Positions 9,914 to 30,748 are shown, counted from the stretch's first letter. The stretch is 45,266 nucleotides of DNA from an uncultured bacterium (GCA_965365795.1 CBDUDB010000002.1:1-45266); one strand, 5' to 3'. Program-made: numbers and translations. The notes: generated from the sequence alone by a model not told the origin.

Positions 9914-11995
9914 TTAGACCATATCCTGAATTCTCCTCAGATCCGACGGGCTTCCCATGACCAGCATCTGGTCATCATCACCGAATTCAAACTGTCCATC
10001 CGGCACCCGCCCGACAATTTCGGCTCCCCCGTCCCGCTTTTGCTTGACCAGCAGCACCGTAACTCCGTAGCTGTTGCGCAGATCCAATCCCGCACAATTG
10101 CGCCCCAGGAAGGCCGCGGGAACCGGGATTTCAGCTAAACTCAGGCCCGACACCCCCGGCATGGGGGTGAAACGCCCGACATCTTCCATGGATGTAACCA
10201 TACTCGAGGCCGTCTCGCGCTTGAACATTTCGTTGTTGTACTGCTGGATGACATCCTGCACCTGGATCGCGCCAACCAGAATGCCTTCGGCGACCACGGG
10301 AACCTCGTATTGATAAAGGCCCAATTGACGAATGACTTTGTCCAACTGGTCTTCCGGTCTAACCACAGGGAAACCCTTGGATTGCATAATGTCATAAGCC
10401 ATGATGGCCTGCCCGGCCTGGTGGGTCATCCCGAGGTAGGGCCGCAAATCATCGAAATTGACAACCCCCTCCAACCTGTCCCCGGCTCCAATGACAAAAA
10501 TAGAGTTGTGTCGGTTGGTCATGAACAGGGAAAGCAATTCGAACAGATTCGCCTCTGAACTTACCTTGCCCTCGGGTTCACACATCACTTCGCTGGCCTG
10601 CAGGTGACTCAGCACATTCAAGCTGCGACCTTTGTAGAGATCCAACCCGCGGCGCAACAACTTCTTGGTGTAGATGGAGGCGCTTGTGATCCTCGAGGCC
10701 AGCATGGTGGCAATCACACACGAGATCATTAGTGGCAGGATGATTTTGTAGTCGCCCGTCAACTCGAAAATGATCATGAAGGCCGTCAAGGGCGCATGGG
10801 TCGTCGCTGCGACCACCGCACCAGCTCCCACAAGAGCGTAGGCACCCGAAGAGGCGGTAGCGGAAGGCCAGATGTTGTGAACCACCGTACCCAGTCCACC
10901 CCCGGTCATGGCTCCTATCATTAGCGATGGAGCAAAAATCCCTCCTGAGCCTCCCGACCCTATCGTGATGGCGACAGCCACGATCTTGACCAAGGCCAGC
11001 AGAAGCAAGGTCTGCAGTACAAGGTCTTCGTGCAGGGCCATCTCTATGGCCTCGTACCCTACCCCCATGATTTCCGGAAAACGCAGCGCCATCAAACCGA
11101 TCAGGAGGCCCCCGATGACCGTTTGCACGACACTTGGGATCCTGGCCAGGGGGCCCTCGAAAAAATCCTCCGCGGCATACAGGACCTTGACGAACAACAG
11201 CCCCACCAGACCGGCGATAACCCCAAGCAACCCGTAGAGGCCCAATTCCCATGAACTGACCAGGGAGTATTTAGGGATCAAAAAGGCAGGCAGATCCGCA
11301 AAGAAATGGTGACTGACCACCGTTGCTGCCACCGAAGAGATCACAATGGGGGTCAGCTGGGACGGGGCGAAGTCCCCCAGAATCACTTCGGCGGAAAACA
11401 GGACCCCGGCGATGGGCGCATTGAAGGTGGCGGCAATGCCTGCTGCCGCGCCACATCCCACCAGGGTACGAAGACGGCGCTCTCCCAGATGCATCAACTG
11501 CCCGATGGCTGAGCCAAGGGCCGACCCGATCTGCACAATGGGGCCCTCACGCCCCACCGAGCCTCCGGTTCCAATGCAAATACCGGAAGCGACCATTTTC
11601 GCCAGCACAACCCGCGCCCTTATCCGCCCCCCGCGCAGCATGACAGCTTCCATTACCTCCGGGACCCCGTGTCCCTTGGCTTCCCGTGCGAAAAAGTGGA
11701 TGATTATACCTACGAGAAGACCGCCGGCAGCCGGAATGAGAATCAATTGCCAGGGAGGATGGCTGCGAAGACCGTCCAGGGTAAAAGCCGGCATCTGCCA
11801 GGCCTGGACCTGCACCAATTGAATGAATTTTCGAAATCCGACCGCACAGAGACCGCCCAAAAGTCCCACCAAAACGGCCAAGAGGACCATCAAAGTGTGA
11901 TAGGACTCCAGAAATCGGAATCGGATACGACTTGTATTCAGCAGCTGGTTAATATTCATGGGGGGAATATCCGGAACGGGACGGCGGAATGCCAT
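9914..11995 (-). CDS. ClC-family chloride channel / H+-Cl- antiporter with C-terminal CBS pair and RCK_C (TrkA_C)-like domain
   Basis: Selectivity-filter motifs GSVGREGP and GGSGGIFAPS. About 10 or more hydrophobic helices. The C-terminal tail is CBS-like, then ...GVTVLLVKQKRDGGAEIV...GDDDQMLVMG. Start trimmed to ATG 11995 (AAGGAAA upstream). Confidence 0.88.
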   Translation of the reverse strand: MAFRRPVPDIPPMNINQLLNTSRIRFRFLESYHTLMVLLAVLVGLLGGLCAVGFRKFIQLVQVQAWQMPAFTLDGLRSHPPWQLILIPAAGGLLVGIIIHFFAREAKGHGVPEVMEAVMLRGGRIRARVVLAKMVASGICIGTGGSVGREGPIVQIGSALGSAIGQLMHLGERRLRTLVGCGAAAGIAATFNAPIAGVLFSAEVILGDFAPSQLTPIVISSVAATVVSHHFFADLPAFLIPKYSLVSSWELGLYGLLGVIAGLVGLLFVKVLYAAEDFFEGPLARIPSVVQTVIGGLLIGLMALRFPEIMGVGYEAIEMALHEDLVLQTLLLLALVKIVAVAITIGSGGSGGIFAPSLMIGAMTGGGLGTVVHNIWPSATASSGAYALVGAGAVVAATTHAPLTAFMIIFELTGDYKIILPLMISCVIATMLASRITSASIYTKKLLRRGLDLYKGRSLNVLSHLQASEVMCEPEGKVSSEANLFELLSLFMTNRHNSIFVIGAGDRLEGVVNFDDLRPYLGMTHQAGQAIMAYDIMQSKGFPVVRPEDQLDKVIRQLGLYQYEVPVVAEGILVGAIQVQDVIQQYNNEMFKRETASSMVTSMEDVGRFTPMPGVSGLSLAEIPVPAAFLGRNCAGLDLRNSYGVTVLLVKQKRDGGAEIVGRVPDGQFEFGDDDQMLVMGSPSDLRRIQDMV

Positions 11996-12100
11996 ATAAA
12001 TTTCCTTGGATTGGCCCCCAAATTTGCCCACGTGGAGATGCGGAACTCCCTGGGAATCCAACGAATGCAGGATCCCACAATCGCCCTCTGGGACCGGGAT

Positions 12101-12703
12101 TTATTTCCGCCCCTTTGGATTGAAGACCGCCTTCATCGTTTGGCAAACCAATACGAACACATCCGTTAGCCGAAGAACCCCGACAATTTCCTTGCTGTTT
12201 TCCCCTGTTACCAGCAACGAATGATGATGACCCATCAGAAGGCGGTGTATGGCATTCTGCAGAGAAGCGTCGACAGGGATGTACTCTCCCTCCGTGGGGG
12301 TGTACATGAAATCTGCAACTCTTTGTCCTCCCGCTGCCGTGCAAAGTTGGTCCAATGGCAGATTCCAACAATCGTTCTCTTTGAGGAGGAACTCGATATA
12401 GCTGTTGCTGATGCCAAACCGGGAAAGATGGGCTTCACCCAGTTTGTCGCCGAAATCCGGCTCAAGGGCTTTGATGATGTCCATCTGGCTCAGCTTGCCA
12501 ATGATGTGATTGTCTTTGTCGAAAACGAGGAGTGCTCGGTGCCTATAGGGGGTCGACTCAAATTCCGCCCGGGCTTCCTCCAGCGAAAGGATAGCCTCGT
12601 ACAAGGTGGCGTCCTGCGGAACTGTGGCGTATTCGGCCAGGGGAACCATCAAATCCTTTACAGCGATGTCTTTCATCTTGATCTTCTCTTTCCGGCTCAC
12701 CAT
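12101..12703 (-). CDS. Stand-alone CBS-pair domain protein
   Basis: Two CBS-like repeats (VKDLMVP...TVPQDATLYEA...; VADFMYTP...VDASLQNA...VGVLRLTDV). ATG 12703 overlaps the upstream regulator stop (ATGGTGA). An alternative ATG at 12676 gives MKDIAVKDLM. Confidence 0.78.
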   Translation of the reverse strand: MVSRKEKIKMKDIAVKDLMVPLAEYATVPQDATLYEAILSLEEARAEFESTPYRHRALLVFDKDNHIIGKLSQMDIIKALEPDFGDKLGEAHLSRFGISNSYIEFLLKENDCWNLPLDQLCTAAGGQRVADFMYTPTEGEYIPVDASLQNAIHRLLMGHHHSLLVTGENSKEIVGVLRLTDVFVLVCQTMKAVFNPKGRK

Positions 12704-13128
12704 CCCTTTTTCTTGAGGATGTCTTCAATGGCCTGGGCCGATCGTTTTTCCAGAAGCACCATCCGTTGGTCCGCAGCGTCGCCGATCAGACTCGTCAGGG
12801 CCTGGATATCCACGGGCTTTTCCAGGAACTCCGTGGCTCCCGTCTTTATCGCCTCGATCCCCTTGGAGACCGTAGCGTGGCCGGTAAGAATGATCACCTG
12901 CTGGTCAGCGTCCTCGGACAGCAGTCGTTTCAGGGTCTCGATACCGTCCATGCCCGGCATCTGCAGATCCAGAATCACAGCGTCGAAACGGTGAGCATCC
13001 ACGAGTTCCAGCGCCTCGGAACCGTTGGACGCCGTATACACTTCCATTTCCCGCAACTGCAGCCGTTCGGAGAGCGTCTCAGTGAATTCCGTTTCGTCGT
13101 CGACGAGCAGCACTTTCGCTTTTGCCAT
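12697..13128 (-). CDS. Single-domain response regulator (REC plus short helical tail)
   Basis: VLLVDDETEF, AVILDLQMPGMDG, VIILTGH, ATEFLEKP. Start trimmed to ATG 13128, preceded by GAAAGGAAAGG. No output domain. Confidence 0.85.
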   Translation of the reverse strand: MAKAKVLLVDDETEFTETLSERLQLREMEVYTASNGSEALELVDAHRFDAVILDLQMPGMDGIETLKRLLSEDADQQVIILTGHATVSKGIEAIKTGATEFLEKPVDIQALTSLIGDAADQRMVLLEKRSAQAIEDILKKKGW

Positions 13129-13144
13129 TTCTACACCTTTCCTT

Positions 13145-13822
13145 TCATGCAGAGACTTCCGGACCGGTGGGCAGGTTAATTTTGATCGCAAACCCGGCAT
13201 CGTTCCGTTCGATGGCCACCCTTCCTGCCAGTCGGACGACGATTCCCGACAGTTTCTCGAATTCCTCCCGTGACTCGATATCGTCGCCCCCGGAAACACA
13301 GGAAACCAGAATGTTAACACTATTGTCGTCCGGGCGTATCACAAGCTCGAGGGTTGGCGAGGGCTCCGCCGCAGCCAACACCAGCTCCCAACTGCAAAAC
13401 AGGGCTCGTTGCACCAGAAACCCGTTGCAGAGGATCGGCACCTCACTTTCAGGTGCCGTGTAGGTGAGCGTCGCCCCCCGGCGCTCTAGCAGCCGGCAGG
13501 TCAGGACGGACAGATTGTCGACCGTTTCCCGAAGATCCAGTACCCGCACCCCTTCCTCCACGCTGTGGGAAAACCGGTTCATGTGCGAAATGAGTTCCTT
13601 CCCGCGCACGGCATTCAGATCGATTTTCCCGGAGATCTGCTCCACCTTCTCCACCGGAAGGGGACGGCCGCGTTCGGCGAGTTGGACCAGGTCCCCCAAC
13701 AACCCGGAAAGTTCGCTGATGATGGTAATGACGTTGTTGAATTCGTGCGACACGTTCGCCATGATCCTGCCGAAGAACTGCAGGTCCGCCTGGAGAAGAC
13801 GTTCCCGCCCCCCGGTGTCCAT
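13145..13822 (-). CDS. Soluble histidine-kinase-like protein with an intact H-box but degenerate ATP-binding boxes (candidate His-phosphotransferase, ChpT/Spo0B-like)
   Basis: H-box ANVSHEFNNVITII in a DHp-like helix. The CA-like C-terminal domain has no recognisable N-box Asn or G1/G2 boxes (FLVQRALFCSWELVLAAAEP, VSCVSGGDDIES). The start overlaps the upstream REC stop (TGATG). Confidence 0.55.
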   Translation of the reverse strand: MDTGGRERLLQADLQFFGRIMANVSHEFNNVITIISELSGLLGDLVQLAERGRPLPVEKVEQISGKIDLNAVRGKELISHMNRFSHSVEEGVRVLDLRETVDNLSVLTCRLLERRGATLTYTAPESEVPILCNGFLVQRALFCSWELVLAAAEPSPTLELVIRPDDNSVNILVSCVSGGDDIESREEFEKLSGIVVRLAGRVAIERNDAGFAIKINLPTGPEVSA

Positions 13823-14208
13823 CAGTTTTCACCTCTTCGGTTGGCCGTGATGGCGTCCTCCATTTTGACGATGAGATCCTCCAGGTTGATTGGCTTGAGC
13901 AGATAGTCGGTCGCCCCGGCCTGGATACCATCTCTGCTGGATTCGGGCGACATATGGCCCGTCAACAGGATGACCGGCAATTCGGGCCGGAGCTTCTTGA
14001 TGAGTTTCATCACCTCGATACCGTCCTCCCCCTTAAGCTTCACATCCTGCACCACGACGCCAAATTCTTGTTCCCTGATCTTCGCGAGGGCCTGCTCGCC
14101 TGTCTGGACCCCGACCGTCTCGATCCCACGGAATTCAAGTCTCTCCACGAGGGTTGACAACAGGTCGTCCTCGTCATCGACGATCAAAACTCGGAAATGC
14201 TCACGCAT
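13822..14208 (-). CDS. Single-domain response regulator (REC only)
   Basis: VLIVDDEDD, VVVQDVKLKGEDG, VILLTGH, ATDYLLKP. The start overlaps the kinase stop by 8 nt (ATGCGTGA). Confidence 0.85.
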   Translation of the reverse strand: MREHFRVLIVDDEDDLLSTLVERLEFRGIETVGVQTGEQALAKIREQEFGVVVQDVKLKGEDGIEVMKLIKKLRPELPVILLTGHMSPESSRDGIQAGATDYLLKPINLEDLIVKMEDAITANRRGEN

Positions 14209-15928
14209 GGGTTGGCTCCTGCAGAGTGGGTTGACCGGCTGGCAGATTTATCGTGAAACGCGTTCCTTTCCCGACTTCGGATTCAACCTCGATGGTACCT
14301 TTGAGTTTCTTGACGATACCATATGTTATTGAAAGACCGAGCCCGGTTCCGTGGGATTTTTTCGTGGTGAAGAAAGGCTCGAAAATATTCTCCAAATTGG
14401 CTTGGGAGATTCCGATGCCGTCGTCCTCGATCGTCACCGACACCCGCCCCGGTTTCAGGCCTCTGATGTCGATCCGCAGGCAACCGCCCTTCTCCATGGC
14501 GTCGAAGGCGTTGTTGATCAGATTCAGGAAAAGTTGCTGCATCTGTCCCTGGTCACTATGCACCGTGGGCAACGAATCCGCGACTGTCATCTCTATCCGA
14601 ATATCCCTGAAGATGGCCTCCTTTTCCAGGAATCCAAGGACTTCCCTGATCAGCTTGTCGATCACGATGGGCTCGTGCTTGGTATCCATGTGCCGGGCGA
14701 AGCCGAGAAGGCGGTGCGTGATTTCGCTGCACCGGGTGACCGACTTGATAATACTGCCGGTCTGCTGGAGCAGTTTTTCCTTCTGTGGCGTACCCGGCGA
14801 TGACCCCAAGATGTCGGTGATCAATCCCGCCTTCTCGTTGATGATCGCCAGAGGATTGTTGATCTCGTGGGCGACACCCGCCGCCAGACGCCCGATCGAA
14901 GCCATGCGGTTGGTGTGCTCGACATTGTGGAGGGTCGCTTCCCGATGAAGATCGGATTCCTTAAGCCGGTGCACCCAGCCCGTAGTGATCCACATGATGA
15001 TCAGCAGGATAGCCACGATGCTGACAACCAGGAATGCCAGCATTTCCCCTTGGTAGAGCAACCACCCGGACATCAGTTTCTTCTGCCCGACCAGAATCAC
15101 GAATATGAACGGGGAACCTTCGATGGCTGCCGATCCCATGAAGTAGGCCTGGCCCTCGATCCCTACCTCGTCCACCAGCACCATGTGGTCGCTGTGAGCG
15201 GGAACCTCGAGAGGAAAACTTTCAAGGGCTTCACCGAAAAGTTTTGATGGTGTCTGCAGCCGACCGGACCGGTTGATCAGGAAAGCATCGAAATTGCGGG
15301 TGGGCCCGGCTATCTGGATCTGGCGGATGATGCCTTCGGTATCGATCGTGGAGCGGAATATCAGGGATCGACCGCCGGTGCCGCTCCGGTTGACGGCGAT
15401 GATGAAGTGGGGCAAGTTCCTGTGGCCCAGAAATACGTCACTGACGAACACGTCACGCTGAACCGCCTGGTTGAACCAGTCCTGGTCCCTGTCGCTCTTG
15501 CCGTCCAGGTCGTATGGGCCCGCGTAGGCCCGCATGACCCCATCGCGGTCCACGACTCCGATGTCGATGATGCCACCGAACGAATCGGTCATCCTTTCCA
15601 GGATGCCCTCCAGCACCTCTGGATCGTAAAGATCCTCCGCCTGTTCTCGGGAGACGATGTACTGGGCGGCCGCGATCCGTTCTTCAAGGAAGGATTCCAG
15701 GTAACGCTTGGTGATGGCCGCGATCCGTTCGATGGGCTGGGTGATCTCATGGCGGAAAGACCGATGGTACATGTAATAATTGACACTGGTAATCGTGAGC
15801 AAAGGCACCAGGCTGACCGCCGCAACCGCGAGCACCGTGTTGCGCCACATCCGCCGGTAGCGGGACAGGTATCCGGTTCCGTCCGCAGACGTGTCTATGA
15901 AAATGAATTTCTGAAAAAAACCGCCCAA
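14201..15928 (-). CDS. Membrane sensor histidine kinase with periplasmic Cache-like domain
   Basis: Two TM segments (NTVLAVAAVSLVPLLTITSV; LAFLVVSIVAILLIIMWITTGWV) flank a loop of about 250 aa. H-box AAGVAHEINNPLAII. NLINNAFDA, DDGIGI, GTGLGLS. The listed start is TTG 15928, with an alternative ATG at 15850. Confidence 0.87.
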   Translation of the reverse strand: MGGFFQKFIFIDTSADGTGYLSRYRRMWRNTVLAVAAVSLVPLLTITSVNYYMYHRSFRHEITQPIERIAAITKRYLESFLEERIAAAQYIVSREQAEDLYDPEVLEGILERMTDSFGGIIDIGVVDRDGVMRAYAGPYDLDGKSDRDQDWFNQAVQRDVFVSDVFLGHRNLPHFIIAVNRSGTGGRSLIFRSTIDTEGIIRQIQIAGPTRNFDAFLINRSGRLQTPSKLFGEALESFPLEVPAHSDHMVLVDEVGIEGQAYFMGSAAIEGSPFIFVILVGQKKLMSGWLLYQGEMLAFLVVSIVAILLIIMWITTGWVHRLKESDLHREATLHNVEHTNRMASIGRLAAGVAHEINNPLAIINEKAGLITDILGSSPGTPQKEKLLQQTGSIIKSVTRCSEITHRLLGFARHMDTKHEPIVIDKLIREVLGFLEKEAIFRDIRIEMTVADSLPTVHSDQGQMQQLFLNLINNAFDAMEKGGCLRIDIRGLKPGRVSVTIEDDGIGISQANLENIFEPFFTTKKSHGTGLGLSITYGIVKKLKGTIEVESEVGKGTRFTINLPAGQPTLQEPTHA

Positions 15929-15963: not shown

Positions 15964-17181
15964 TCAGTCGTTCTCGCCAAGCCCCTCCCCTGCGGCCTCT
16001 TTCGCGCGGCGCATGGTATCGGCGAGGACTTCAATGTCCACGGGTTTCTCCAGATAGGCAAAGGCGCCGAGTTCCAGGCAAAGGTCCCTGTCCTTTTGAT
16101 TGCCGTGACCGGTAAGAATGATGACTTTGACGTTCGGGTATTCCACAGAAGCACGCCTGAGAACCTCGATGCCGTCAATACCGGGCATCTTCAGATCCAG
16201 CACCATGACTTCCGGTTCCTCCTCCTCCATCAATGCCATCGCATCTTCGCCGCTGAAGACCACAGCCGGTTCGAGATCCCGCATTTCCAGACGTTCTGAA
16301 AGAGTCAACACGAAATCCCGTTCGTCGTCCACCAGAAGCACCTTTTCCGGCAACTCGAAATCGAAGGGGGTCAGGGCGGATACCGGCCGGTAGTTGGGAC
16401 CGGTCCGGACCTCGACGTCCCGAACACCGTCCAAGCCTTTCAACAGGGATTTCAGCTCGGTCTCCAGTTTGTCCAGCCGAATAACGTACTCATCGATGAC
16501 GACGGTTAGAACGTCCCGGCGACAAGAAAGGGAATGGTAGAATCCGGCCTCGATCATGGTCTGCTCGGCATGGGCCGCGGTCGCGAAATCCCGAAGAGCC
16601 TGTTTCGATTTCGCCGTCTGCTTCATCGGATCCCGGCCTGCGTATTCGACCACGAGTTCGGCCACCTCATCGACGCCCATCGTGTGTACCGGGATCTTCA
16701 GGTCATACAGGGTCGTATCCCAAGGCTGTTTGTCATAAATCTTACGGGTCCATTGGGCCCGTTTCAGATCCTCTTTCTGGATTCGGTGCAGTGCGGCTTC
16801 GAATTTGACCCCCTCTTCTTGGGCGAAAAGCTTGGCCCGCTGCTCTGGATCGTCAAGGAGGCAGACCCGCAACACATGTCCGATTTGCTGTGAGATAAGA
16901 TGAGAGGCGAACCCGGAGAGTATCTGGTTGTCGTCCAGCATATCGGCCAGTGTGGTCTTCAACTGGGCCAGATACTGCTCGCGGCGATGGGTGAACTTGT
17001 TGAAATGAAATGGCGGACCGGCCATGGCCCGCTCGAGCTTATCCCGCGGGGTGCCGAAACGTTCACCTGTCACTTCGAACAAGCGGTCTCCGATCAGCGG
17101 CCACCCGGTCATTTCACTGATCCTATTGGTGATATCCTCCGCCCGACAGAAGAAAGCACTGAATACCGAGATGATTGCCAT
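15964..17181 (-). CDS. Response regulator with N-terminal cytidylate-kinase-like (PF13189-type) domain lacking a P-loop, C-terminal REC
   Basis: The C-terminus is VLLVDDERDF, VMVLDLKMPGIDG, VIILTGHG, AFAYLEKP. The N-terminal region of about 190 aa is colinear with the cytidylate kinase-like family (…VLRVCLLDDPEQRAK…KEDLKRAQWTRKIYDKQPWDTTLYDLKI…). The Walker A position reads SVFSAFFCRAE. ATG 17181 is preferred (AAGGAG, 6-nt spacing). Confidence 0.72.
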   Translation of the reverse strand: MAIISVFSAFFCRAEDITNRISEMTGWPLIGDRLFEVTGERFGTPRDKLERAMAGPPFHFNKFTHRREQYLAQLKTTLADMLDDNQILSGFASHLISQQIGHVLRVCLLDDPEQRAKLFAQEEGVKFEAALHRIQKEDLKRAQWTRKIYDKQPWDTTLYDLKIPVHTMGVDEVAELVVEYAGRDPMKQTAKSKQALRDFATAAHAEQTMIEAGFYHSLSCRRDVLTVVIDEYVIRLDKLETELKSLLKGLDGVRDVEVRTGPNYRPVSALTPFDFELPEKVLLVDDERDFVLTLSERLEMRDLEPAVVFSGEDAMALMEEEEPEVMVLDLKMPGIDGIEVLRRASVEYPNVKVIILTGHGNQKDRDLCLELGAFAYLEKPVDIEVLADTMRRAKEAAGEGLGEND

Positions 17182-17255
17182 TATCAACTCCTTGACAATA
17201 TCATCCGTCCCAAAGAGAACATACCCATATTACCATTTTCTCGTTCCCTCGCCTA

Positions 17256-17264
17256 TGGTATAGT
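17256..17264 (+). promoter_or_regulatory. Candidate extended -10 promoter element (TGgTATAGT) for the SulP gene
   Basis: TGGTATAGT lies about 80 nt upstream of ATG 17345 in the AT-richer divergent intergenic region. No good -35 was seen. Confidence 0.3.
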
Positions 17265-17344
17265 ACCACAACAAATTACCAGATGCCATTTTCTTTGGCT
17301 TCACCTCTGCTGGGCGATGAGAATTTCGTTTGAGAGGCTAACTG

Positions 17345-19930
17345 ATGCTGTCCAGGATCTTCCCGTTTATTTCTTGGTCCCAGGGATATGATGCCGGCAA
17401 ATTTCGGGCGGATTTCATCGCCGGGTTGACCGTGGCTCTGGTTCTCATTCCCCAATCTATGGCCTACGCCCAACTCGCAGGCCTTCCTGCCTACTACGGT
17501 CTTTACGCTTCGTTCCTGCCGCCGATGGTGGCGGCCCTCTTCGGCTCAAGCCGGCAACTGGCCACCGGCCCGGTGGCCATTGTTTCCCTCATGACCGCCG
17601 CCACCCTGGAGCCCCTGGCAACCGCCGGCAGCGAAGCGTTCATCTCCTACGCCATATTCCTGGCCTTGCTGGTCGGCCTGTTCCAGCTTTCGCTCGGTGT
17701 GCTGCGCCTCGGCGTGGTCATCAACTTCCTGTCCCATCCAGTCGTGATCGGCTTCACAAACGCTGCCGCCATCATCATCGCCACCAGCCAGCTTTCGAAG
17801 ATGTTCGGCGTTTCCGTGGACAAGGCCGAACACAACTACCAAACCGTTTGGCGAGTGCTCGTTGCCGCCCACCAGTACACCCACTGGCCCACCTTCCTGC
17901 TGGGCGCGCTGGCCTTCGTCATTATGATCGTCCTGAAAAAGCTCAATCCCAGGATCCCCTGCGTGCTGGCCGCCGTCGTTGTGACAACACTCATTTCCCG
18001 CGTCATCGGGCTGGAGAACAACAAGCAGGCAGCCATCGACCAGGTGGAATCGCCAACGGTGCACGAGTTGATTCAAGTCTACAACCGGGATGTCCAGGCC
18101 ATCGCCCTGGTTTCGGAGGCGCGCGCTTATCTGGAACCGCATGTTGAAAAGATTGCCGATTCCCGGGACGGAGGCACCTGCATGGCCTGCCACACCAAGC
18201 AACAGGTGGACCTGGACATGTTGCGTGACGAAACGCTGGCGTCCACTTCCTTGGACGTAAATCCCATGACGGCTCTGAAACTGCACGCGATGGCCGGACT
18301 CCTGGACAAGGAGATCAGCCAAGTCAAGGAACTGGCGTCGGAATCCCGCATGGAGCTTCGTGCTCTGAATTTCTTTTTGCAAGAAGAAGACGGGACGTCA
18401 CGATTTGTCCCCGCGGAAGGGCCGACCGGTGGACACGGCATCTGGCGTCTGCAGGTCGGCAACCTGCCCCTCGACCTCGAGAATCTGGTCTTCCTCGGGG
18501 GCGGTGCCATTGTTGGAGCCGTTCCGAGGGGCCTGCCGCATCTGAGCGTTCCAGTGTGGAACATGTCGGTATTTAGAAAATTGTTCATGGCCTCAATCAT
18601 CATTTCGATCCTCGGCTTCATGGAGGCCATTTCCATCGCCAAGGCGATCGCTGCCCGAACCGGTCAACGGCTGGATCCCAACCAGGAATTAATCGGTCAG
18701 GGCATAGCCAACATCGTGGGTTCCTTCGGACAGAGCTACGCTGTTTCCGGGTCCTTTTCCCGCTCGGCCGTCAACATTCAGGCCGGAGCGGTCACCGGCT
18801 TCTCCAGCGTTTTCACCAGCGCCATCGTCGTGGTCGTTTTGCTTTTCTTCACGCCCTTGCTGTACTATCTGCCCCAATCCGTGCTGGCCGCCGTGATCAT
18901 GATGGCCGTCATCGGCCTCATCAATTTCAAGAGCGTCATACACGCCTACAAGGTCAAACGCAGCGACGGGGTCATCAGTGTCATTTCCTTTGTCGCCACT
19001 CTGGCCTTCGCACCTCATCTGGACAAAGGTATCCTGTTGGGCGTCGCACTGACGGTGGGAGTTTTCCTCTACGGCAGGATGAAGCCGGCCATCGCCGAAC
19101 TTTCGTTGGCGCGGGACGGGCATTTCCACAACGCCAGGCAACAGCGGCTGACCCAGTGCCGGTACCTGGCCATCATCCGGTTCGACGGTCCCCTGTTCTT
19201 CGCCAACGCAAGCTATCTCGAGGACGAGGTCCTCGACCGACTGCGGTCCTTGCCCGAACTTAAGGCCATCCTGTTCAAGTCCGACGGAATCAGCGAAATC
19301 GATGCCTCCGGCGAGGAAACCCTTTCATTGCTGATCGATCGACTCAGGTCCGGCGGCATCGACGTCTTTTTTTCCGGCCTCAACGAACGGGTGACCGACA
19401 CCCTGCACAGGAGTCATCTGTCGGAAAAGATCGGCAAGGACCACGTCTTCATGACTGTGACCCATGCCGTGGAGTCCATCTGGTCCAGAACGCACGAGGC
19501 TTCGAATGAAGAGGCTTGTCCGTTGATACACGTCGTGCCGACCGGAGAGCCGGCCATCGACTCGAAAATCAGAATCCTGATCGTGGATGACGAACAGGAT
19601 TTCGCCGACCTCTTGGCCTTGCGGCTGGACAAGCGCGGAATGAAAACCGATGTCGCCTATTCGGGCGATGAGGCTATGGAACATGTCCAGTCCGTGGCAT
19701 ACGACGCTGTTATTCTCGACATCAGGCTGGGTCGGGATGACGGTCTGGACTTCCTGCTCAAGTTTCGGGATCTGCGCCCCAACCTTGCCGTTATCATGCT
19801 GACCGGGGTGGGCTCCATTGAGTCCGCCGTCGAGGCCGTCAAACATGGGGCGTTTGATTTCATGTTGAAACCATGCAACATTGACGACTTGGAGGGTAAA
19901 ATCCGGGAAGCCTACAGGCTTGGGGTCTAG
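17345..19930 (+). CDS. SulP/SLC26-family anion transporter fused to STAS and a C-terminal receiver (REC) domain, with a ~165-aa insert after TM7
   Basis: SulP N-terminus (FIAGLTVALVLIPQSMAYAQLAGLPAYYGLYASF...GSSRQLATGP), core motif ELIGQGIANIVGSFGQSYAVSGSFSRSAVN, and STAS (YLAIIRFDGPLFFANASYLED...IDASGEETL). REC: RILIVDDEQDF, AVILDIRLGRDDG, VIMLTGVG, AFDFMLKP. Insert at aa ~222-385 contains C279-M-A-C-H283. Confidence 0.9.
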   Translation: MLSRIFPFISWSQGYDAGKFRADFIAGLTVALVLIPQSMAYAQLAGLPAYYGLYASFLPPMVAALFGSSRQLATGPVAIVSLMTAATLEPLATAGSEAFISYAIFLALLVGLFQLSLGVLRLGVVINFLSHPVVIGFTNAAAIIIATSQLSKMFGVSVDKAEHNYQTVWRVLVAAHQYTHWPTFLLGALAFVIMIVLKKLNPRIPCVLAAVVVTTLISRVIGLENNKQAAIDQVESPTVHELIQVYNRDVQAIALVSEARAYLEPHVEKIADSRDGGTCMACHTKQQVDLDMLRDETLASTSLDVNPMTALKLHAMAGLLDKEISQVKELASESRMELRALNFFLQEEDGTSRFVPAEGPTGGHGIWRLQVGNLPLDLENLVFLGGGAIVGAVPRGLPHLSVPVWNMSVFRKLFMASIIISILGFMEAISIAKAIAARTGQRLDPNQELIGQGIANIVGSFGQSYAVSGSFSRSAVNIQAGAVTGFSSVFTSAIVVVVLLFFTPLLYYLPQSVLAAVIMMAVIGLINFKSVIHAYKVKRSDGVISVISFVATLAFAPHLDKGILLGVALTVGVFLYGRMKPAIAELSLARDGHFHNARQQRLTQCRYLAIIRFDGPLFFANASYLEDEVLDRLRSLPELKAILFKSDGISEIDASGEETLSLLIDRLRSGGIDVFFSGLNERVTDTLHRSHLSEKIGKDHVFMTVTHAVESIWSRTHEASNEEACPLIHVVPTGEPAIDSKIRILIVDDEQDFADLLALRLDKRGMKTDVAYSGDEAMEHVQSVAYDAVILDIRLGRDDGLDFLLKFRDLRPNLAVIMLTGVGSIESAVEAVKHGAFDFMLKPCNIDDLEGKIREAYRLGV

Positions 19931-19991: not shown

Positions 19992-22697
19992 ATGTCCGCT
20001 CATTTTTCCCCGGACGGTCGGCTGACCGCCAGTGACCTGGCGCCCGGCCTGCATACCGCGAAACTGACCAACGGCTTGAAAATCATCATCAAGGAAGATC
20101 ACCGCACCCCGGTGGCCGTGTGTAACGTGTGGGTCCGGGTCGGCTCGAACCGGGAACCGAACGTCCTGCGCGGCTGGTCCCACGGCATCGAGCACATGCT
20201 CTTCAAGGGCACCCGTGGCCGCAACGAGGGCGACTTTGCCAACGAGGTGGCCGAGGCCGGAGGATCGACCAACGCAGGCACCGGATACGAGACCACCAAT
20301 TTCCACATCACCACCCCGGTGCCCGCGCTTCCGGTGGCGGTCGACATCCTGTCTGACGCCCTCTTCCATTCGACCTTCGCCCCGACTTCCCTGGACGCCG
20401 AACGTCAGGTGCTGGTCCACGAAAACCACATGTACGACGACATCCCCTTCGGCTTCGGCATCACCTGGCGCTGGGGCATGGAATTGACCTTCGACCACAG
20501 TCCCTACCACCATCCCATCGGCGGTAGAGACGCCAATCTTCTGGAGTGCGACCGGGCCGATATCATGGCTTTCTGGAGATCCGCCTACCGACCCGACAAC
20601 ATGACCGTCGTCGTGGTGGGCGACGTGGATCCGGCGGCCACCTTCGGGTTGCTGCAGGACAGGTTTGCCGATCCCGGGGTCCATTTTCCCGAAACCACCG
20701 ATCCGGCTGTCGGAATAGTTGAGGCTCCCCCGGTCGAGCCGGTCCACCGGGAACCCCGGCTCAGAGTCGAACGCGGGGACATCACCAAGGTTTACGCCAA
20801 ACTGATCTTTCCGGCCCCGGGCGATTGCGATGGCCAGGAACATATCATGAGCGTGGTACACCGGGTGCTTTCCGACGGCCGCAGCTGCCGTCTCTATCGC
20901 CAGCTCCACGAAGAAAAGAAACTGGTCGACAATTTCACGGTTATGACCGAGACCGGCCCCCGTGAAGGGGTGGTCATGGTGGACATCGAAACCGATGCCG
21001 AGCGCTTGGCCAGTGCTCTGGTGGAGGTCGCCCGCATCCTGGAAGACCTGAACCGGGACTCATGCACGGACCTGGAACTGGGGCGGGCCAAAACGAGGGT
21101 GGGCCGTTCTTTTCTGTTCGGCGCCGAGACGGTCCAGGGTCAGGCCTCGACCCTCGGGCAGCATGAAGTCATGGACGACCTCGAAGGCGCTTTCCAATTC
21201 CCGGACCGCGTGGCCTCGGTCACCCGGGACGATGTGGCTCAGCTTTGCCGCCGAATTTTCCGGGTGGGCAACATCAACGGCATGATTTACTTGCCGGAAG
21301 ACACCGACACCGCCGCCCATGGGATTCCCACCGAGGTCGGTTCCTTCAAATCCCTTCTGAACAGAGTATTGAGAGATCCTTCCGGTGATGAATTATCGGA
21401 CCTGGCCGCGGCCGGCGACTGGCCAATCGCCCCTAAAACCCGATCCGGTTCCCAGGACCTGACAGCCCAACCCTTCCGGACCGAAACCTTGACCGGAGGA
21501 ATCGAAGTCAGTTACAGGGTGGATCCGTCCGTTCCGGTATTGGCCCTGGCCCTGACCCTCAAGGGAGGTGCCACGGGCGAAACCGCGGCCAAGGCCGGTC
21601 TGGCGACTTTGACCCAGATGGTGCAGATAAAGGGCACCGGCCAGCTGGACGCCGAAACCCTTCATGAATTGCTGGAGGGCGAGGGCGCCGCCCTGTCACC
21701 CTTGACCGACAGGGACTATAGCGGGATGGTGTTGACCGGCCTTTCGGACCGGATGGACCAGGCCCTGGATCTGACCTCCCAGCTTGTTCACGCGCCGTCT
21801 TTCCTCGAATCGGAAATCGCCCAGGAACGCCGGCTGGGCCTGGAACAGCTGGCCGCCATCGCCGATTCCCCCTTCCAGTCCGCCGCGGTCAAGTTGCGCC
21901 AGATGGTCTACGGCGACCATCCCTACGGTCGCCCGCTTCCCGGTACCGAGGACAGCCTGCCGGGCCTGAGCCGGGATGACCTGGTGAACCGGCACCGCAG
22001 TATGTGGACCGCGGACAACCTCCAGATCGTCGTCTCGGGAAACCTGGAACCGGACCGGTTCCTCGCCCGACTCGATTCCCTCTTGTCCGGACTGCCCGCC
22101 GGGGACGGCCCCCAGGTTCTTTCACCGGGCCCCACCCGGATTCCCGACGGAATCGTGTCGGCCAGGATCGACAAGAAACAGAATCAAAGCGTGGTCCTGG
22201 TAGCCTGGCCGGGTCCGTTCACCCCCGAGGAAAACCGTGTTCCCTTGATGATGCTGAAAGAGGTTCTCAACGGACAAAGCGGTCGGCTCTTCGATAGCCT
22301 GCGCAACAAGCGGTCCCTGTGTTACAACACGGGAACCTTGAGCACCGCCGGTTTCGGACAGGGGATGTTCATGGGATACGTTCTGACTTCACCGGAAACG
22401 GAAACCGAAGCTCGGGAAGCCTTGGTGGCCGAACTGGCGGGCCTGGCCGAAACGGCCCTACCCGAGGTGGAATTCGAAAGGGCCCGCGCCAAGCTTTTGG
22501 GAAACCTGCTCATCGGGGCCCAGTCCAACGGCTCCCGGGCGGGTCGAACTCTTCGCGATCGCGTCTACGGCCGGGACCCCAATGACCTTGATCATCTTCT
22601 CGAAAAAGTCCGCGCCTGTTCCTCGGACCAGGTTCGCCGGGTTGCCGCCGCTACCATCGACCCGAACAGCAGGTTCGAGGTGACCCTTGGTCCCTGA
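19992..22697 (+). CDS. M16-family (pitrilysin/insulinase-like) zinc metallopeptidase, fused tandem M16 units
   Basis: Inverted zinc motif GWSHGIEHMLFKGT (HxxEH) with downstream ...GGSTNAGTGYETT. The second half repeats the fold (…LKEVLNGQSGRLFDSLRNKRSLCYN…) without HxxEH. Confidence 0.87.
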   Translation: MSAHFSPDGRLTASDLAPGLHTAKLTNGLKIIIKEDHRTPVAVCNVWVRVGSNREPNVLRGWSHGIEHMLFKGTRGRNEGDFANEVAEAGGSTNAGTGYETTNFHITTPVPALPVAVDILSDALFHSTFAPTSLDAERQVLVHENHMYDDIPFGFGITWRWGMELTFDHSPYHHPIGGRDANLLECDRADIMAFWRSAYRPDNMTVVVVGDVDPAATFGLLQDRFADPGVHFPETTDPAVGIVEAPPVEPVHREPRLRVERGDITKVYAKLIFPAPGDCDGQEHIMSVVHRVLSDGRSCRLYRQLHEEKKLVDNFTVMTETGPREGVVMVDIETDAERLASALVEVARILEDLNRDSCTDLELGRAKTRVGRSFLFGAETVQGQASTLGQHEVMDDLEGAFQFPDRVASVTRDDVAQLCRRIFRVGNINGMIYLPEDTDTAAHGIPTEVGSFKSLLNRVLRDPSGDELSDLAAAGDWPIAPKTRSGSQDLTAQPFRTETLTGGIEVSYRVDPSVPVLALALTLKGGATGETAAKAGLATLTQMVQIKGTGQLDAETLHELLEGEGAALSPLTDRDYSGMVLTGLSDRMDQALDLTSQLVHAPSFLESEIAQERRLGLEQLAAIADSPFQSAAVKLRQMVYGDHPYGRPLPGTEDSLPGLSRDDLVNRHRSMWTADNLQIVVSGNLEPDRFLARLDSLLSGLPAGDGPQVLSPGPTRIPDGIVSARIDKKQNQSVVLVAWPGPFTPEENRVPLMMLKEVLNGQSGRLFDSLRNKRSLCYNTGTLSTAGFGQGMFMGYVLTSPETETEAREALVAELAGLAETALPEVEFERARAKLLGNLLIGAQSNGSRAGRTLRDRVYGRDPNDLDHLLEKVRACSSDQVRRVAAATIDPNSRFEVTLGP

Positions 22698-27813: not shown

Positions 27814-30621
27814 TTACTCAAAATCACCCGGGATCGCTTCCACCCGACCGAAGAACTCGCCCTCGCGTGCCTGAGAAGGAGTGTGGATGGCGAACAAGCG
27901 TGCCCGTTCGCGCGCCCGTTCCACCTGACCTGAGGCCAAACGCCACCACACCTCTTCGTGCCACAATCGAACCTGAATCTGACTCGGGCGCCATTGGCCG
28001 CCGGCTCCCTGCGGGTCCGGGTAAAAAGATGCCGCGGCCGCGAACTGGTCGGCGGCCTGGGCGTAACGTCCGGCCAGGGCCAGCAGCTGTCCGCAGGTGG
28101 CGAACTGCATGGGCTCGGACGCATGGGTATTTAATTGTTCCAACCAGCCACCTTCCCCATCGGCCAGAGTGGCCAGCGAGGATGCCAGCGAACGACCCGA
28201 CACCGGGTCGACCTCGGACAGTCGTGCCCTGATCGCATTTTCCAGACGGCCGGTTTCCGAATCACCACCGGACAAGATTCCTTCCAGGAGGGTCTGCACA
28301 TACTGGCGGTGAAGGAGCATCAAATCGGGACGTTGGCCACCCCGGCCGCGTCCGTTTCGCCAACGGTCTTCCACGGCCGCCATGATGTCTCTTTGCCTGT
28401 CCTGGAGACTGGATAAAGCCCCCTCGAAATCCACCAACCGTATTCTGTCGCCGGCGAGATCGACCAGCCGGCGGTCGGTGACCCGAAAATTTTCCAGCCG
28501 CCACCAGCAGTTGTGGTCACTTTGCCAGTCGGCCAATGCGCCCGGTGATCGAGCCTCCGGCAACACCCGGAAAACGCGGTAATGCTCGTTGTCGAAAACG
28601 GGCTGGAAACGGGAAAGTGTTTGGGGACGGAAGTGCATTCGGACCACGTTCATGTCCAGGGCCAGTTCACCCGTGGTCCCGGCCAGCCAGGACGTGGTAC
28701 CCGGCCCGGTCACCGTCGCGAAATTCCGGTTGATGAAGAGGTAATCGGCCCCGAACTTACGGGCGAATTCCCACAATTTCTTTTCTTCCGTGGCGAAAAG
28801 AGCCTCCAGGAATTGTTGGTAACGGACCCTTATCTCAGTGTTTTCAAACTGGGAATTCAATACGATGGGACGACCGGTATAGAGCAGCAACTGGGGGCTG
28901 ACCCCGATTTCTCCCAGAAACGCTGCTGGCGGCCCGCTTTGCCGGGAACCAGGTCCAGGGGTGTTGACCGTAACCCACGAGAACATACCGGCCCAGGATG
29001 TCCACAGGTTCTGGTCCGACGCCTTCATCCGCACTTCTTGTCCCTGACGAACCCGGCCGGTGACACGGATCATGTCGCCCAGGTTGCCCTTCAGGTTCAA
29101 GAGCGGACTGATCAGCAGGACACCCGCAACCAGCAGCAGCGCCTTGACGCCCAGCCGGCCGGACAGCCGCCGGACCAACCATTCGCCGGCCAAGGCAACG
29201 GCCACCGCGGCAAATATCAGAAAAACGATTCCCATGCGTTCGATCATCAGGTAAGCCGCCAGAAAGGCCGTCACCATCAAAAAGAATGACCGCCGCAAAG
29301 GACCTGTCCGCTGCTGGAAAATGGCTATCATGCCTCCGGCCAGGACCGGTACCAGAACCACTGCGTGAAATCCCAGCTTGGACCAGATTTCCCCCAGGGT
29401 CGGCGTGTTGAAGGGCGAAGCCCAGAACACCCTCGTCGCGAAGGGCAAAAGGCCGGGATCGGTCGGACGCTGGAAACCGTGAGCCAACTTCTGGACAAAG
29501 AGCCCAAATACATGTCCATAGTCGCCGGTGTAAACGCGGTTGAAAAAAACCAGCGCCGCTGCCGTGAGGGTCAGACCAACCAGCATCAGGGCTCGGGCCC
29601 AGGTCGTGCGGCCCAGCGGAGGTTTTTTCCAGACCACCACCGCGGTGAGCAACCAAGCGTAACAAACACCCATCGGCAGGCTGAATATAAAACCCCGGGA
29701 CCAAAGGGAGGGCGTCAATCCCGCGACCAGTCCGGCCAGGGTAGTGACCATGGGCATGAAAACCGGAAAGGGAATCCGCGCGGCGACGAGTTTTCCACTG
29801 GTGGCCGAGAGGGACACCGCGACCGCGACCGACAGCATGGTGACCAGGACCAGAAACTGGCTCAGGTGCCAGCAGGCCAGCAGGGGAATCAAAACCACCG
29901 CCGCCAGCACGCCGAGTTTGACACTCTGCCGACGCCAAGCCTGAAAATGGAGGGCCAGAAACACCGTGAGCAGCAAGAGGGCAAAATCCTCTTTCAGAAG
30001 CAGGGAGCCGGTCAGTCTGACAAAACCCAGCGTACAGGTCGCGTAGAATACCACCGCCACCACTGCCAGGACGCGGCGGCAGCCTACCCCCCGGGCCAGA
30101 ACGTAAAGGGGAAAAAACAGCAGGACATGGATCAGGGGAATCAACCGCAGAAGAAATTCGACCAAGGGACGGGCCTGGTCACCTGCCAGCCGGTAGAGAA
30201 AACCGTAAACCGGCTCCATCATAACGGCGTATTCACGCCAGGCGTTCACCCCATCGGGGTGCTGCTGCCAGGTGTCACGGGAAAGAATTTCCGGGTCCTG
30301 ATAGTCGTCCACGGCATACATCAGGGCCAGGCGATAGTGGAACGCCCGTTCGCTCCAGAAATAACCCATGTGGCCCAGCTGGCTCGGCGGCCTGGCCGGA
30401 GACCGTGTTTGGCCGAGCTCGGGGCCGGCCACCACGATCGGTACCAGGGGCGGATCGCCCAGCGTTTCGTATTGGCGGTAAAGGCTGGTGGCCACGGCGT
30501 TGATCATTTGCCAGGACCCGGCGGCCACCAACAGGACCACCGCCAGGGCCAGAACCTCGTGGTGAAGATTCGGGTGGTTGTGAAAAAAGAGCGGAATTTT
30601 TCCCTTGGGGGATCGTGACAT
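27814..30621 (-). CDS. Large polytopic membrane protein, putative GT-C-fold glycosyltransferase (ArnT/PMT/Dpy19-like) with soluble C-terminal domain and TPR-like tail
   Basis: A dozen or more hydrophobic helices across aa ~30-520, and an acidic first extracytoplasmic loop (…YAVDDYQDPE…). The C-terminal ~400 aa are soluble (…ADYLFINRN…EHYRVFRVL…), followed by helical-repeat-like sequence. The family assignment is tentative. ATG 30621 is preferred (GGAGAA, 7-nt spacing). Confidence 0.55.
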   Translation of the reverse strand: MSRSPKGKIPLFFHNHPNLHHEVLALAVVLLVAAGSWQMINAVATSLYRQYETLGDPPLVPIVVAGPELGQTRSPARPPSQLGHMGYFWSERAFHYRLALMYAVDDYQDPEILSRDTWQQHPDGVNAWREYAVMMEPVYGFLYRLAGDQARPLVEFLLRLIPLIHVLLFFPLYVLARGVGCRRVLAVVAVVFYATCTLGFVRLTGSLLLKEDFALLLLTVFLALHFQAWRRQSVKLGVLAAVVLIPLLACWHLSQFLVLVTMLSVAVAVSLSATSGKLVAARIPFPVFMPMVTTLAGLVAGLTPSLWSRGFIFSLPMGVCYAWLLTAVVVWKKPPLGRTTWARALMLVGLTLTAAALVFFNRVYTGDYGHVFGLFVQKLAHGFQRPTDPGLLPFATRVFWASPFNTPTLGEIWSKLGFHAVVLVPVLAGGMIAIFQQRTGPLRRSFFLMVTAFLAAYLMIERMGIVFLIFAAVAVALAGEWLVRRLSGRLGVKALLLVAGVLLISPLLNLKGNLGDMIRVTGRVRQGQEVRMKASDQNLWTSWAGMFSWVTVNTPGPGSRQSGPPAAFLGEIGVSPQLLLYTGRPIVLNSQFENTEIRVRYQQFLEALFATEEKKLWEFARKFGADYLFINRNFATVTGPGTTSWLAGTTGELALDMNVVRMHFRPQTLSRFQPVFDNEHYRVFRVLPEARSPGALADWQSDHNCWWRLENFRVTDRRLVDLAGDRIRLVDFEGALSSLQDRQRDIMAAVEDRWRNGRGRGGQRPDLMLLHRQYVQTLLEGILSGGDSETGRLENAIRARLSEVDPVSGRSLASSLATLADGEGGWLEQLNTHASEPMQFATCGQLLALAGRYAQAADQFAAAASFYPDPQGAGGQWRPSQIQVRLWHEEVWWRLASGQVERARERARLFAIHTPSQAREGEFFGRVEAIPGDFE

Positions 30622-30748
30622 GTAACATTTCTCCAGATGATCCGTCATTCCACCTGAGTCCGCTTGGTGATTTCATTCTAACATCGCCGTTCCGACGGGA
30701 ACATCCTCAATTTGTTTCCCGCAACCAGCTATTTCTGATCAGGAAGGA

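Follow-up and report, generated by a model that had tools for sequence, protein, structure and literature searches.

A SulP/SLC26 transporter with a putative haem c site in its TM7-TM8 linker and a fused receiver domain beside a predicted phosphorelay

A 45,266-nucleotide stretch of DNA from an uncultured bacterium (GCA_965365795.1 CBDUDB010000002.1:1-45266; hereafter the window) encodes an anion transporter of the SulP/SLC26 type that ends in a receiver domain and carries, between its seventh and eighth transmembrane segments (TM7 and TM8), a predicted periplasmic insert with a putative haem c attachment site. The gene occupies positions 17345 to 19930 on the plus strand as an open reading frame (ORF) of 861 codons with an ATG start, and its identity rests on Pfam, NCBIfam, AlphaFold2 and Foldseek. 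The initial annotation, made from the sequence alone, read the product as SulP core, STAS and receiver (REC) in that order, and Pfam bears this out: Sulfate_transp (PF00916) matches at 2.5e-107 (359 bits against a cut-off of 23), STAS at residues 609-707 (1.2e-14) and Response_reg (PF00072) at residues 744-853 (8.6e-26; 90.7 bits against a cut-off of 30.2). The NCBIfam model TIGR00815 for sulP scores 456.8 bits, its cut-off being 380. The Sulfate_transp match falls into two stretches, the first pairing residues 20-232 with profile positions 1-219 and the second restarting near residue 387. Database labels for proteins of this clade are generic, either 'SulP family transporter' or 'response regulator'.

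A full-length AlphaFold2 model, computed from an input of 78 homologues and reaching a mean predicted local distance difference test score (pLDDT) of 77.6, contains 14 membrane segments followed by STAS and REC, with the strand-plus-short-helix elements of the TM3 and TM10 half-helices at residues 74-88 and 468-479. Its Foldseek neighbours are AtSULTR4;1 (2.5e-30), prestin, SLC26A6, SLC26Dg and BicA, with E-values up to about 1e-12, and the TM-scores, when normalised by the membrane domains of SLC26Dg and BicA, are 0.82-0.87. The protein is thus a member of the SLC26/SulP family by its family models, by its fold of seven plus seven segments with a C-terminal STAS domain, and by the anion- and proton-site residues described below. 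It shares with AtSULTR4;1 (PDB 7LHV; a proton-sulfate symporter), SLC26Dg and BicA the 14-segment 7+7 core/gate fold and the C-terminal STAS domain. It differs from the solved SLC26 proteins, to which its overall identity is at most 27%, in that their TM7-TM8 linker is short, whereas its own holds a 165-residue domain with a CXXCH motif, and in that they lack the receiver domain that it possesses.

The first inverted repeat, TM1-TM7 (residues 17-221; 17393-18007, plus strand), was delimited by the AlphaFold2 helices and carries the anion-site residues Q37, Y41 and A78, whereas the second, TM8-TM14 (residues 407-576; 18563-19072, plus strand), comprises seven AlphaFold2 segments with E427, the acidic TM8 residue that cation-coupled family members have, at the proton site and S470-F471-S472-R473 at the anion site. 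Alignment pairs these residues with Q112, Y116, A153, E347 and S390-R393 of AtSULTR4;1, in which the site residues (Q, Y, A, E and S-F-S-R) are identical and in which mutagenesis has shown that Q112, Y116, S392, R393 and E347 bind sulfate or sense protons (PMC8298490). All of the aligned query residues are invariant in the 205 members of the clade that we assembled from database matches and genome loci, comprising 134 sequences with a long, motif-bearing insert and 71 with a short one. This invariance argues for a working proton-coupled oxyanion carrier of the SLC26/SulP type, with sulfate as its likeliest substrate.

The insert in the TM7-TM8 linker and its haem motif

The split Pfam match and the alignment to solved SLC26 proteins establish that about 165 residues (residues ~222-386; 18008-18502, plus strand) are inserted between the seventh helix and the conserved G..P.GLP motif, as the initial annotation had held, within the linker that joins gate to core. 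In AtSULTR4;1, prestin and SPDT, TM7 leads directly into the sequence G-x-IP-x-GLP at exactly this point; query residues 201-222 pair with residues 275-320 of these proteins, and query residues 381-388 with their residues 309-327. Modelled both within the full-length protein and by itself (pLDDT 81.8 for the insert-only model), the insert forms a small beta-sheet base from which an antiparallel helical hairpin about 50 Å long projects. Its elements follow one another, in the insert-only model, as a strand, a 36-residue helix, a poorly predicted apex, the helix that carries H314, a return helix of 22 residues and four strands.

In AtSULTR4;1 the core consists of TM1-4 and TM8-11 and the gate of TM5-7 and TM12-14, with a pair of extracellular loops and a single intracellular one connecting them (PMC8298490). 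Because the N-terminus is cytoplasmic and the solved SLC26 layout is as described, the TM7-TM8 link would be one of the two extracellular loops (PMC8298490). We take the insert to be periplasmic, since the corresponding linker is extracellular in solved SLC26 proteins, since AlphaFold2 predicts seven membrane segments between the insert and the STAS and REC domains, and since the whole TM7-TM8 linker (residues 222-406) is net acidic, with 26 aspartates and glutamates against 15 lysines and arginines. The extracytoplasmic placement first proposed from the general family topology is therefore consistent with both the predicted structure, in which the insert lies at the TM7/TM8 junction of a 7+7 SLC26 fold with seven segments between it and the cytoplasmic STAS and REC domains, and the solved-structure layout, in which that linker is extracellular.

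The motif itself, C279-M-A-C282-H283, lies at 18179-18193 (plus strand), where the initial annotation had placed it, on a short predicted helix, and is the canonical attachment motif for c-type haem, with H283 as the putative proximal histidine. It forms part of an apex module at the tip of the hairpin (residues 274-318; 18164-18298, plus strand) that an alignment of long (~167 residues) and short (~141 residues) inserts reveals in the long forms only, and that also contains a second histidine, H314 (18284-18286, plus strand), a candidate distal haem ligand within the sequence L-H-x-M-A-G-L. Every one of the best 120 database matches, which are 49-97% identical to the query, has both the insert and the CXXCH. 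Within the insert, C279, C282, H283 and H314 are the only positions that are 100% invariant, first among 121 homologues and again among the 134 long-insert sequences (134/134 for the CXXCH and for H314), which come from Acidobacteriota, Myxococcota, Desulfobacterota and other phyla. The conservation of the motif among insert-bearing homologues that would be expected of a functional site is therefore found throughout the long-insert forms.

The surroundings of these four residues are free to vary. The two X positions of the motif are occupied by 44 different residue pairs across the 134 sequences, the remaining apex positions have a mean top-residue frequency of 0.33, and the spacing from H283 to H314 ranges from 23 to 50 residues, mostly 25-30. 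The three CXXCH residues are either all present (134 sequences) or all absent (71 sequences) and never split. A motif produced by chance was considered and is contradicted by this invariance and by an expectation of 0.001 occurrences in a protein of this composition. A profile search of the insert against the PDB returned only matches with E-values of 0.2-2, and these weak matches are almost all helix-CXXCH haem sites, namely those of reaction-centre cytochromes; a Tll0287-like match in the relative P0069 (E 0.067) was too weak and was not used. We infer that the CXXCH is matured into a covalent, bis-histidine-ligated c-type haem. The window also encodes an octahaem cytochrome c (31799-33697, plus strand; 632 residues, eight CXXCH motifs, with cytochrome c7/c3 matches), which implies that the host can mature c-type cytochromes.

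A profile search with the insert over 1.84 billion entries returned only 60 cluster representatives, all of them SulP proteins or fragments, and our literature search found nothing on this insert domain. The relatives that lack the motif came from a representative search and from a genome scan, whose query was an alignment that included the insert plus TM8 to TM10 and whose 80 loci are a sample rather than a census. They form a sister set of ~710-residue SulP proteins that are 52-57% identical to the query over residues 1-730, with an insert of ~141 residues, no apex and CXXCH in 0/71; in 59 of the 71 the insert contains no cysteine at all. This haem-less sister set is the known group Ci of SulP proteins, described as ~710-residue putative sulfate transporters in sulfate-reducing microorganisms (Marietou et al. 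2018, PMC5840216), in an account that put the insertion at ~90 residues and read it as an extra membrane helix (PMC5840216). One haem-less relative is abundant and constitutively made in Desulfosarcina, where it is presumed to import sulfate (PMC11887813). Group Ci resembles the query in clade, in the point of insertion, in the hairpin-plus-sheet insert and in its neighbouring genes for a cytidylate-kinase-like (CK2) protein, a dCache kinase and a histidine-phosphotransferase-like (Hpt-like) protein. It differs in its ~141-residue insert without CXXCH, in its single STAS domain without REC, and in the usual position of its relay genes, immediately downstream of the transporter gene and on its strand, whereas those of the query are divergent and upstream.

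The alignments of these 71 relatives, whose 141-residue insert lacks the motif, indicate that a haem loop of about 26 residues was added later at the tip of an older helical hairpin. The insert and its haem motif had initially been presented as one module; the insert is real, but a joint origin does not hold, the insert being older than the motif.

STAS, receiver and the adjoining phosphorelay genes

The STAS domain (19169-19465, plus strand) contains a D653-A-S655-G motif in which D653 is invariant and position 655 is serine or threonine in all clade sequences. Its tail carries an H717-x7-C725-P726-L motif (19493-19525, plus strand) that is invariant in haem and haem-less forms alike. Together with C605 (19157-19159) this motif makes up a cytoplasmic Cys/His/Cys-Pro set, invariant in the 205 clade members, and an H-x(5-10)-CPL sequence recurs after every extra STAS domain in multi-STAS relatives. 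The C605/H717/C725 set may be a metal or redox site; AtSULTR4;1 has no counterpart of the C605/H717/C725-P726 set.

The REC domain (19574-19903, plus strand) has VDDE at 747-750, ILDIRL at 790-795, MLTG at 818-821 and LKP at 841-843, which supply D748 and D749, the phospho-acceptor D792 (19718-19720), T820 and K842. It is a CheY-like receiver by its family model and by its acidic pocket, aspartate, threonine and lysine. The phospho-acceptor hallmarks that the initial annotation listed are all present and are conserved among fused relatives, with D748 in 37/37, D749 in 34/37, D792 in 37/37, T820 in 33/37 and K842 in 36/36.

The cytoplasmic end varies greatly among the 134 haem forms: 83 have three to six STAS domains and no REC, 42 have one STAS and REC, six have one STAS and no REC, and a single sequence each has four STAS and REC, two STAS and no REC, or is a fragment. 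In the haem-less set, every one of the 71 sequences ends in a single STAS without REC. Only sequences with the haem motif therefore show an enlarged cytoplasmic signalling end, although few independent events lie behind this pattern. The initial annotation had proposed to check whether CXXCH co-occurs with the REC fusion: because the motif also occurs in the forms with three to six tandem STAS domains and in others with one or two, it is not tied to REC. The tandem-STAS proteins (relatives P0009, P0016, P0038 and P0069 and loci L005, L062, L085 and L086) are 1040-1500 residues long with three to six STAS domains, one of them combining four STAS domains with a receiver, and such STAS chains on an SLC26 carrier appear to be undescribed.

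Upstream of the transporter gene, across a divergent intergenic region (17188-17344), lies an operon on the minus strand. As publicly called, its first gene encodes 405 residues and starts at 17181, leaving the 163-bp gap that the initial annotation gave for the divergent pair; the longest ORF, from a TTG at 17187, leaves 157 bp. Promoter- and terminator-like matches around the transporter gene occurred at chance level only, and an Rfam scan of the window found no family.

This first gene (15964-17187, minus strand) encodes a cytidylate-kinase-like domain (PF13189, CK2) followed by REC. No neighbour of the clade is more constant than a PF13189 protein, in most cases one joined to a receiver, with CK2 present at 38 of 43 well-flanked loci; the N-terminal P-loop region of the copy in the window looks degenerate. 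Next comes a sensor histidine kinase (14201-15928, minus strand; orthologues at loci L001, L002 and L086) with a periplasmic dCache_1 domain, HisKA and HATPase_c, which is not a hybrid kinase and whose dCache sensor domain was detected across loci by tblastn. It is followed by a single-domain receiver of 128 residues (13822-14208, minus strand; Pfam 1.5e-26), conserved in gene order and likely the first acceptor of the relay, and by a protein of 225 residues (13145-13822, minus strand) that contains the H-box SHEFNN and whose ATPase half is degenerate. The 225-residue protein, 24-49% identical across loci, matches HisKA weakly (E 0.037) and the DHp region of CckA (5idj) at E 0.0039, shows no G1/G2 ATP-binding motif in its sequence, and is likely a histidine phosphotransferase of the ChpT/Spo0B type.

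A putative phosphorelay of four to five genes thus adjoins the clade, in which a dCache kinase, a single receiver and a ChpT-like phosphotransferase would pass phosphate to terminal receivers without a DNA-binding output, as no relay receiver has a DNA-binding domain. CckA-ChpT-CtrA/CpdR and Spo0F-Spo0B-Spo0A are multi-step phosphorelays with a DHp-type phosphotransferase, and the present genes would resemble them in the order of components, from kinase through single receiver and putative dead-ATPase H-box protein to terminal receivers. They differ in that the terminal receivers here lack a DNA-binding domain, the phosphate passing instead, as we read it, to a transporter and to a protein of the cytidylate-kinase-like type; the assignment of the phosphotransferase rests on similarity at E 0.004-0.04.

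Synteny extends this association well beyond the window. CK2, the dCache kinase and the Hpt-like gene are all present at 33 of the 43 loci whose flanks measure 7 kb or more on both sides, the same relay genes lie beside orthologues in two genomes of 5-6 Mb, and the same operon lies beside multi-STAS forms that lack REC. A gene cluster of SulP with a cache kinase has been noted independently in Desulfobacteraceae (PMC11887813). The tie between transporter and phosphorelay that was first read from the fused receiver therefore stands as a partnership, but it is not limited to the REC-fused form and belongs to the whole clade. Because relay genes adjoin the whole clade, the REC fusion is in our reading of the gene neighbourhoods a Rosetta-stone sign of a clade-wide partnership between transporter and relay. 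We sought a parent of the fused REC among the operon receivers and found no clear source, all being 33-47% identical.

A ClC chloride channel gene with CBS and TrkA_C domains (9914-12061, minus strand) adjoins the relay operon, and a 51%-identical ClC copy lies beside the same operon at locus L086, together with TrkH and TrkA genes. Because of this arrangement at L086, the relay may serve a wider ion-homeostasis cluster.

A proposed function and its alternatives

The explanation that we favour, with a probability of about 0.6, is that the insert is a c-haem stalk that senses redox state or a ligand, on a carrier of the proton/sulfate type under phospho-control. The host cytochrome c machinery (Ccm or Ccs), which acts on the periplasmic side, would attach haem to the apex loop, where it would be bis-histidine-ligated. 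The hairpin would be anchored on TM7 of the gate and TM8 of the core, the rigid bodies of the elevator movement, and because the stalk is anchored on both, a change at its tip could bias that movement. A change in haem redox state, or a ligand that displaces the distal histidine (nitric oxide, carbon monoxide, oxygen and sulfide being candidates), would then be passed to the carrier as a mechanical signal, and phosphorylation of D792 by the relay would alter the contact of STAS and REC with the membrane domain. Anion uptake would in this way be gated by the redox or ligand status of the periplasm together with the signal read by the dCache kinase; alternatively, information could flow in reverse, from the state of the transporter to the relay. 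A bolder form of the proposal, to which we give somewhat less than even odds, is that this is the first secondary transporter with covalent haem, in which a bis-histidine c-haem stalk gates an SLC26 elevator while the relay phosphorylates the STAS-fused receiver.

Parallels exist for each half of the proposed arrangement. Geobacter GSU0582 and GSU0935 and Desulfovibrio DcrA have periplasmic c-type haem sensor domains on chemoreceptors or kinases, whose proposed role is to inform a cytoplasmic signalling domain of redox state or small ligands. The likeness lies in a single CXXCH haem on a periplasmic segment between two membrane helices; the domains differ in being PAS-like folds on chemoreceptors, whereas the motif described here lies at the tip of a helical hairpin on a secondary transporter. 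Transporters linked to two-component proteins include SLC5-type CbrA/CrbS, the Kuenenia Amt-histidine-kinase fusion, DctA-DcuS and BceAB-BceS. These likewise couple a transporter fold physically or genetically to two-component proteins, a fusion being direct evidence of such a partnership, but through a fused kinase or a separate partner, whereas here an SLC26 protein is fused to a receiver, the end that accepts phosphate, in a putative multi-step relay.

Several observations weigh against the haem-stalk explanation. The insert belongs to no Pfam family, and its model compared with the PDB by Foldseek gave no match better than E 0.39, hence no solved fold or cytochrome family; because it fits no existing cytochrome family, we limit our claim to its carrying a putative haem c site. 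The apex is the least confident region in both AlphaFold2 models (pLDDT 46-62), although such low confidence is as expected for a haem site predicted in its apo form. No ccm or ccs genes were found in the 45-kb window. Seventy-one relatives have no motif, and because they do without it the motif is not needed for transport. Since 50 of these 71 relatives likewise have a histidine near the position of H314, that residue counts for little when taken alone. On the question of whether the haem loop arose once, a neighbour-joining tree built from the transporter core is star-like and poorly resolved and requires at least five gains or losses of the motif. On the transport side, the binding residues do not fix substrate selectivity (PMC8298490).

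An account that would leave the haem in place is that the protein works chiefly as a sensor, whether transceptor or co-sensor, in which transport and haem state set the exchange of phosphate or partners between REC or tandem STAS domains and the relay, whose outputs would lie elsewhere, for example in the cytidylate-kinase-like enzyme or the adjoining ClC channel. The whole clade, REC-fused or not, is encoded beside the relay, and REC or two to six tandem STAS domains occur in 127 of the 134 haem forms against 0 of the 71 haem-less ones. STAS domains serve as partner-switching modules, and the DxSG motif has a conserved Ser655. Transporter-like sensors have precedents in CbrA/CrbS, the Amt-kinase fusion and DctA-DcuS. 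Set against this, the invariant anion- and proton-site residues argue that transport itself is under selection, and the Desulfosarcina haem-less relative, abundant, constitutive and presumed to import sulfate (PMC11887813), does not suit a sensor. We regard a role mainly in sensing as unlikely, though it is compatible with a haem stalk that gates the carrier, and both could hold.

The main rival to a haem site, which we consider distinctly improbable, is that the C-x-x-C-H...H residues form a metal site (zinc, copper or iron) or a redox disulfide instead, perhaps one that joins the hairpins of a dimer as the Rad50 zinc hook does. The CXXC does lie at the apex of an antiparallel helical hairpin, two cysteines with two histidines are a well-known set of tetrahedral ligands, no cytochrome family matches the insert, and the Rad50 zinc hook appears in the Foldseek list, at rank 38 with a non-significant E-value of 2.5. 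However, the histidine directly after the second cysteine, a signature of haem c that neither a hook nor a disulfide needs, is invariant in 134/134 sequences; the residues between the cysteines vary freely (44 pairs), unlike those of a thioredoxin-type CXXC; and the host appears to make multihaem cytochromes. Periplasmic cysteines moreover tend towards the oxidised state through Dsb systems, which makes a zinc-thiolate site less likely.

That the motif arose by chance or is a vestige on a purely structural stalk, with REC a degenerate appendage, can be set aside as highly improbable: short-insert relatives work without the motif and three of 37 fused receivers lack T820 and three D749, but four invariant residues persist in a loop of ~33% conservation across 134 sequences whose cores diverge by up to 44%, a CXXCH is expected by chance only 0.001 times per protein, and D748, D792 and K842 are kept in all or nearly all fused receivers.

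In our literature search, we met no SLC26/SulP protein described as having a haem motif, CXXCH or cytochrome c, or a receiver fusion, and the combination of haem site and receiver on such a carrier, which would tie anion uptake to redox conditions outside and signalling inside, has probably not been described before. Work on SLC26/SulP carriers extends from those of bacteria to human disease genes, and their regulation and the STAS domain's role are still unsettled; the natural fusions of this clade name candidate regulators, with a receiver or STAS chain inside and a probable haem sensor outside, the latter on the linker between the mutually moving gate and core. If haem is confirmed, the insert would place c-type haem in a host context new to it, would constitute a sensor fold not seen before, and would offer redox chemistry as an experimental switch for an elevator-type transporter. 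For sulfur cycling, our findings point to control of sulfate uptake at the level of the protein, and they provide a testable function for the insertion that was described in 2018 from the sulfate reducers' main SulP group. Should the bolder form of the proposal be true, sulfate entry would be a redox-checked, post-translationally controlled step in bacteria that alternate between oxic and sulfate-reducing lifestyles.

Other genes in the window

A double M16 (insulinase-type) peptidase of 901 residues (19992-22697, plus strand) starts 61 bp past the transporter stop codon and is not conserved beside the orthologues at L001 and L002. Two further kinases of the window, a hybrid kinase (HisKA, HATPase_c and REC) and a GAF kinase, lie at 37738-39435 and 3695-5485 (both minus strand), and no link from them to the transporter and relay genes was found. 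An ORF at 12221-12994 (plus strand) was rejected, since its composition suggests a spurious frame and its matches are few, weak and scattered. Just upstream of the octahaem cytochrome gene, a protein of 304 residues (30749-31663, plus strand) that belongs to no Pfam family has a hydrophobic N-terminus and many glycine-rich GLGVGG(D/N)D-x-SG repeats. A protein of 944 residues (27814-30648, minus strand) has a weak match to Dpy19, a C-mannosyltransferase-like family that is unusual in bacteria. Finally, a protein of 703 residues (33840-35951, plus strand) combines DinB_2, FGE-sulfatase and methyltransferase domains, an order that we take to be the architecture of the ovothiol synthase OvoA.

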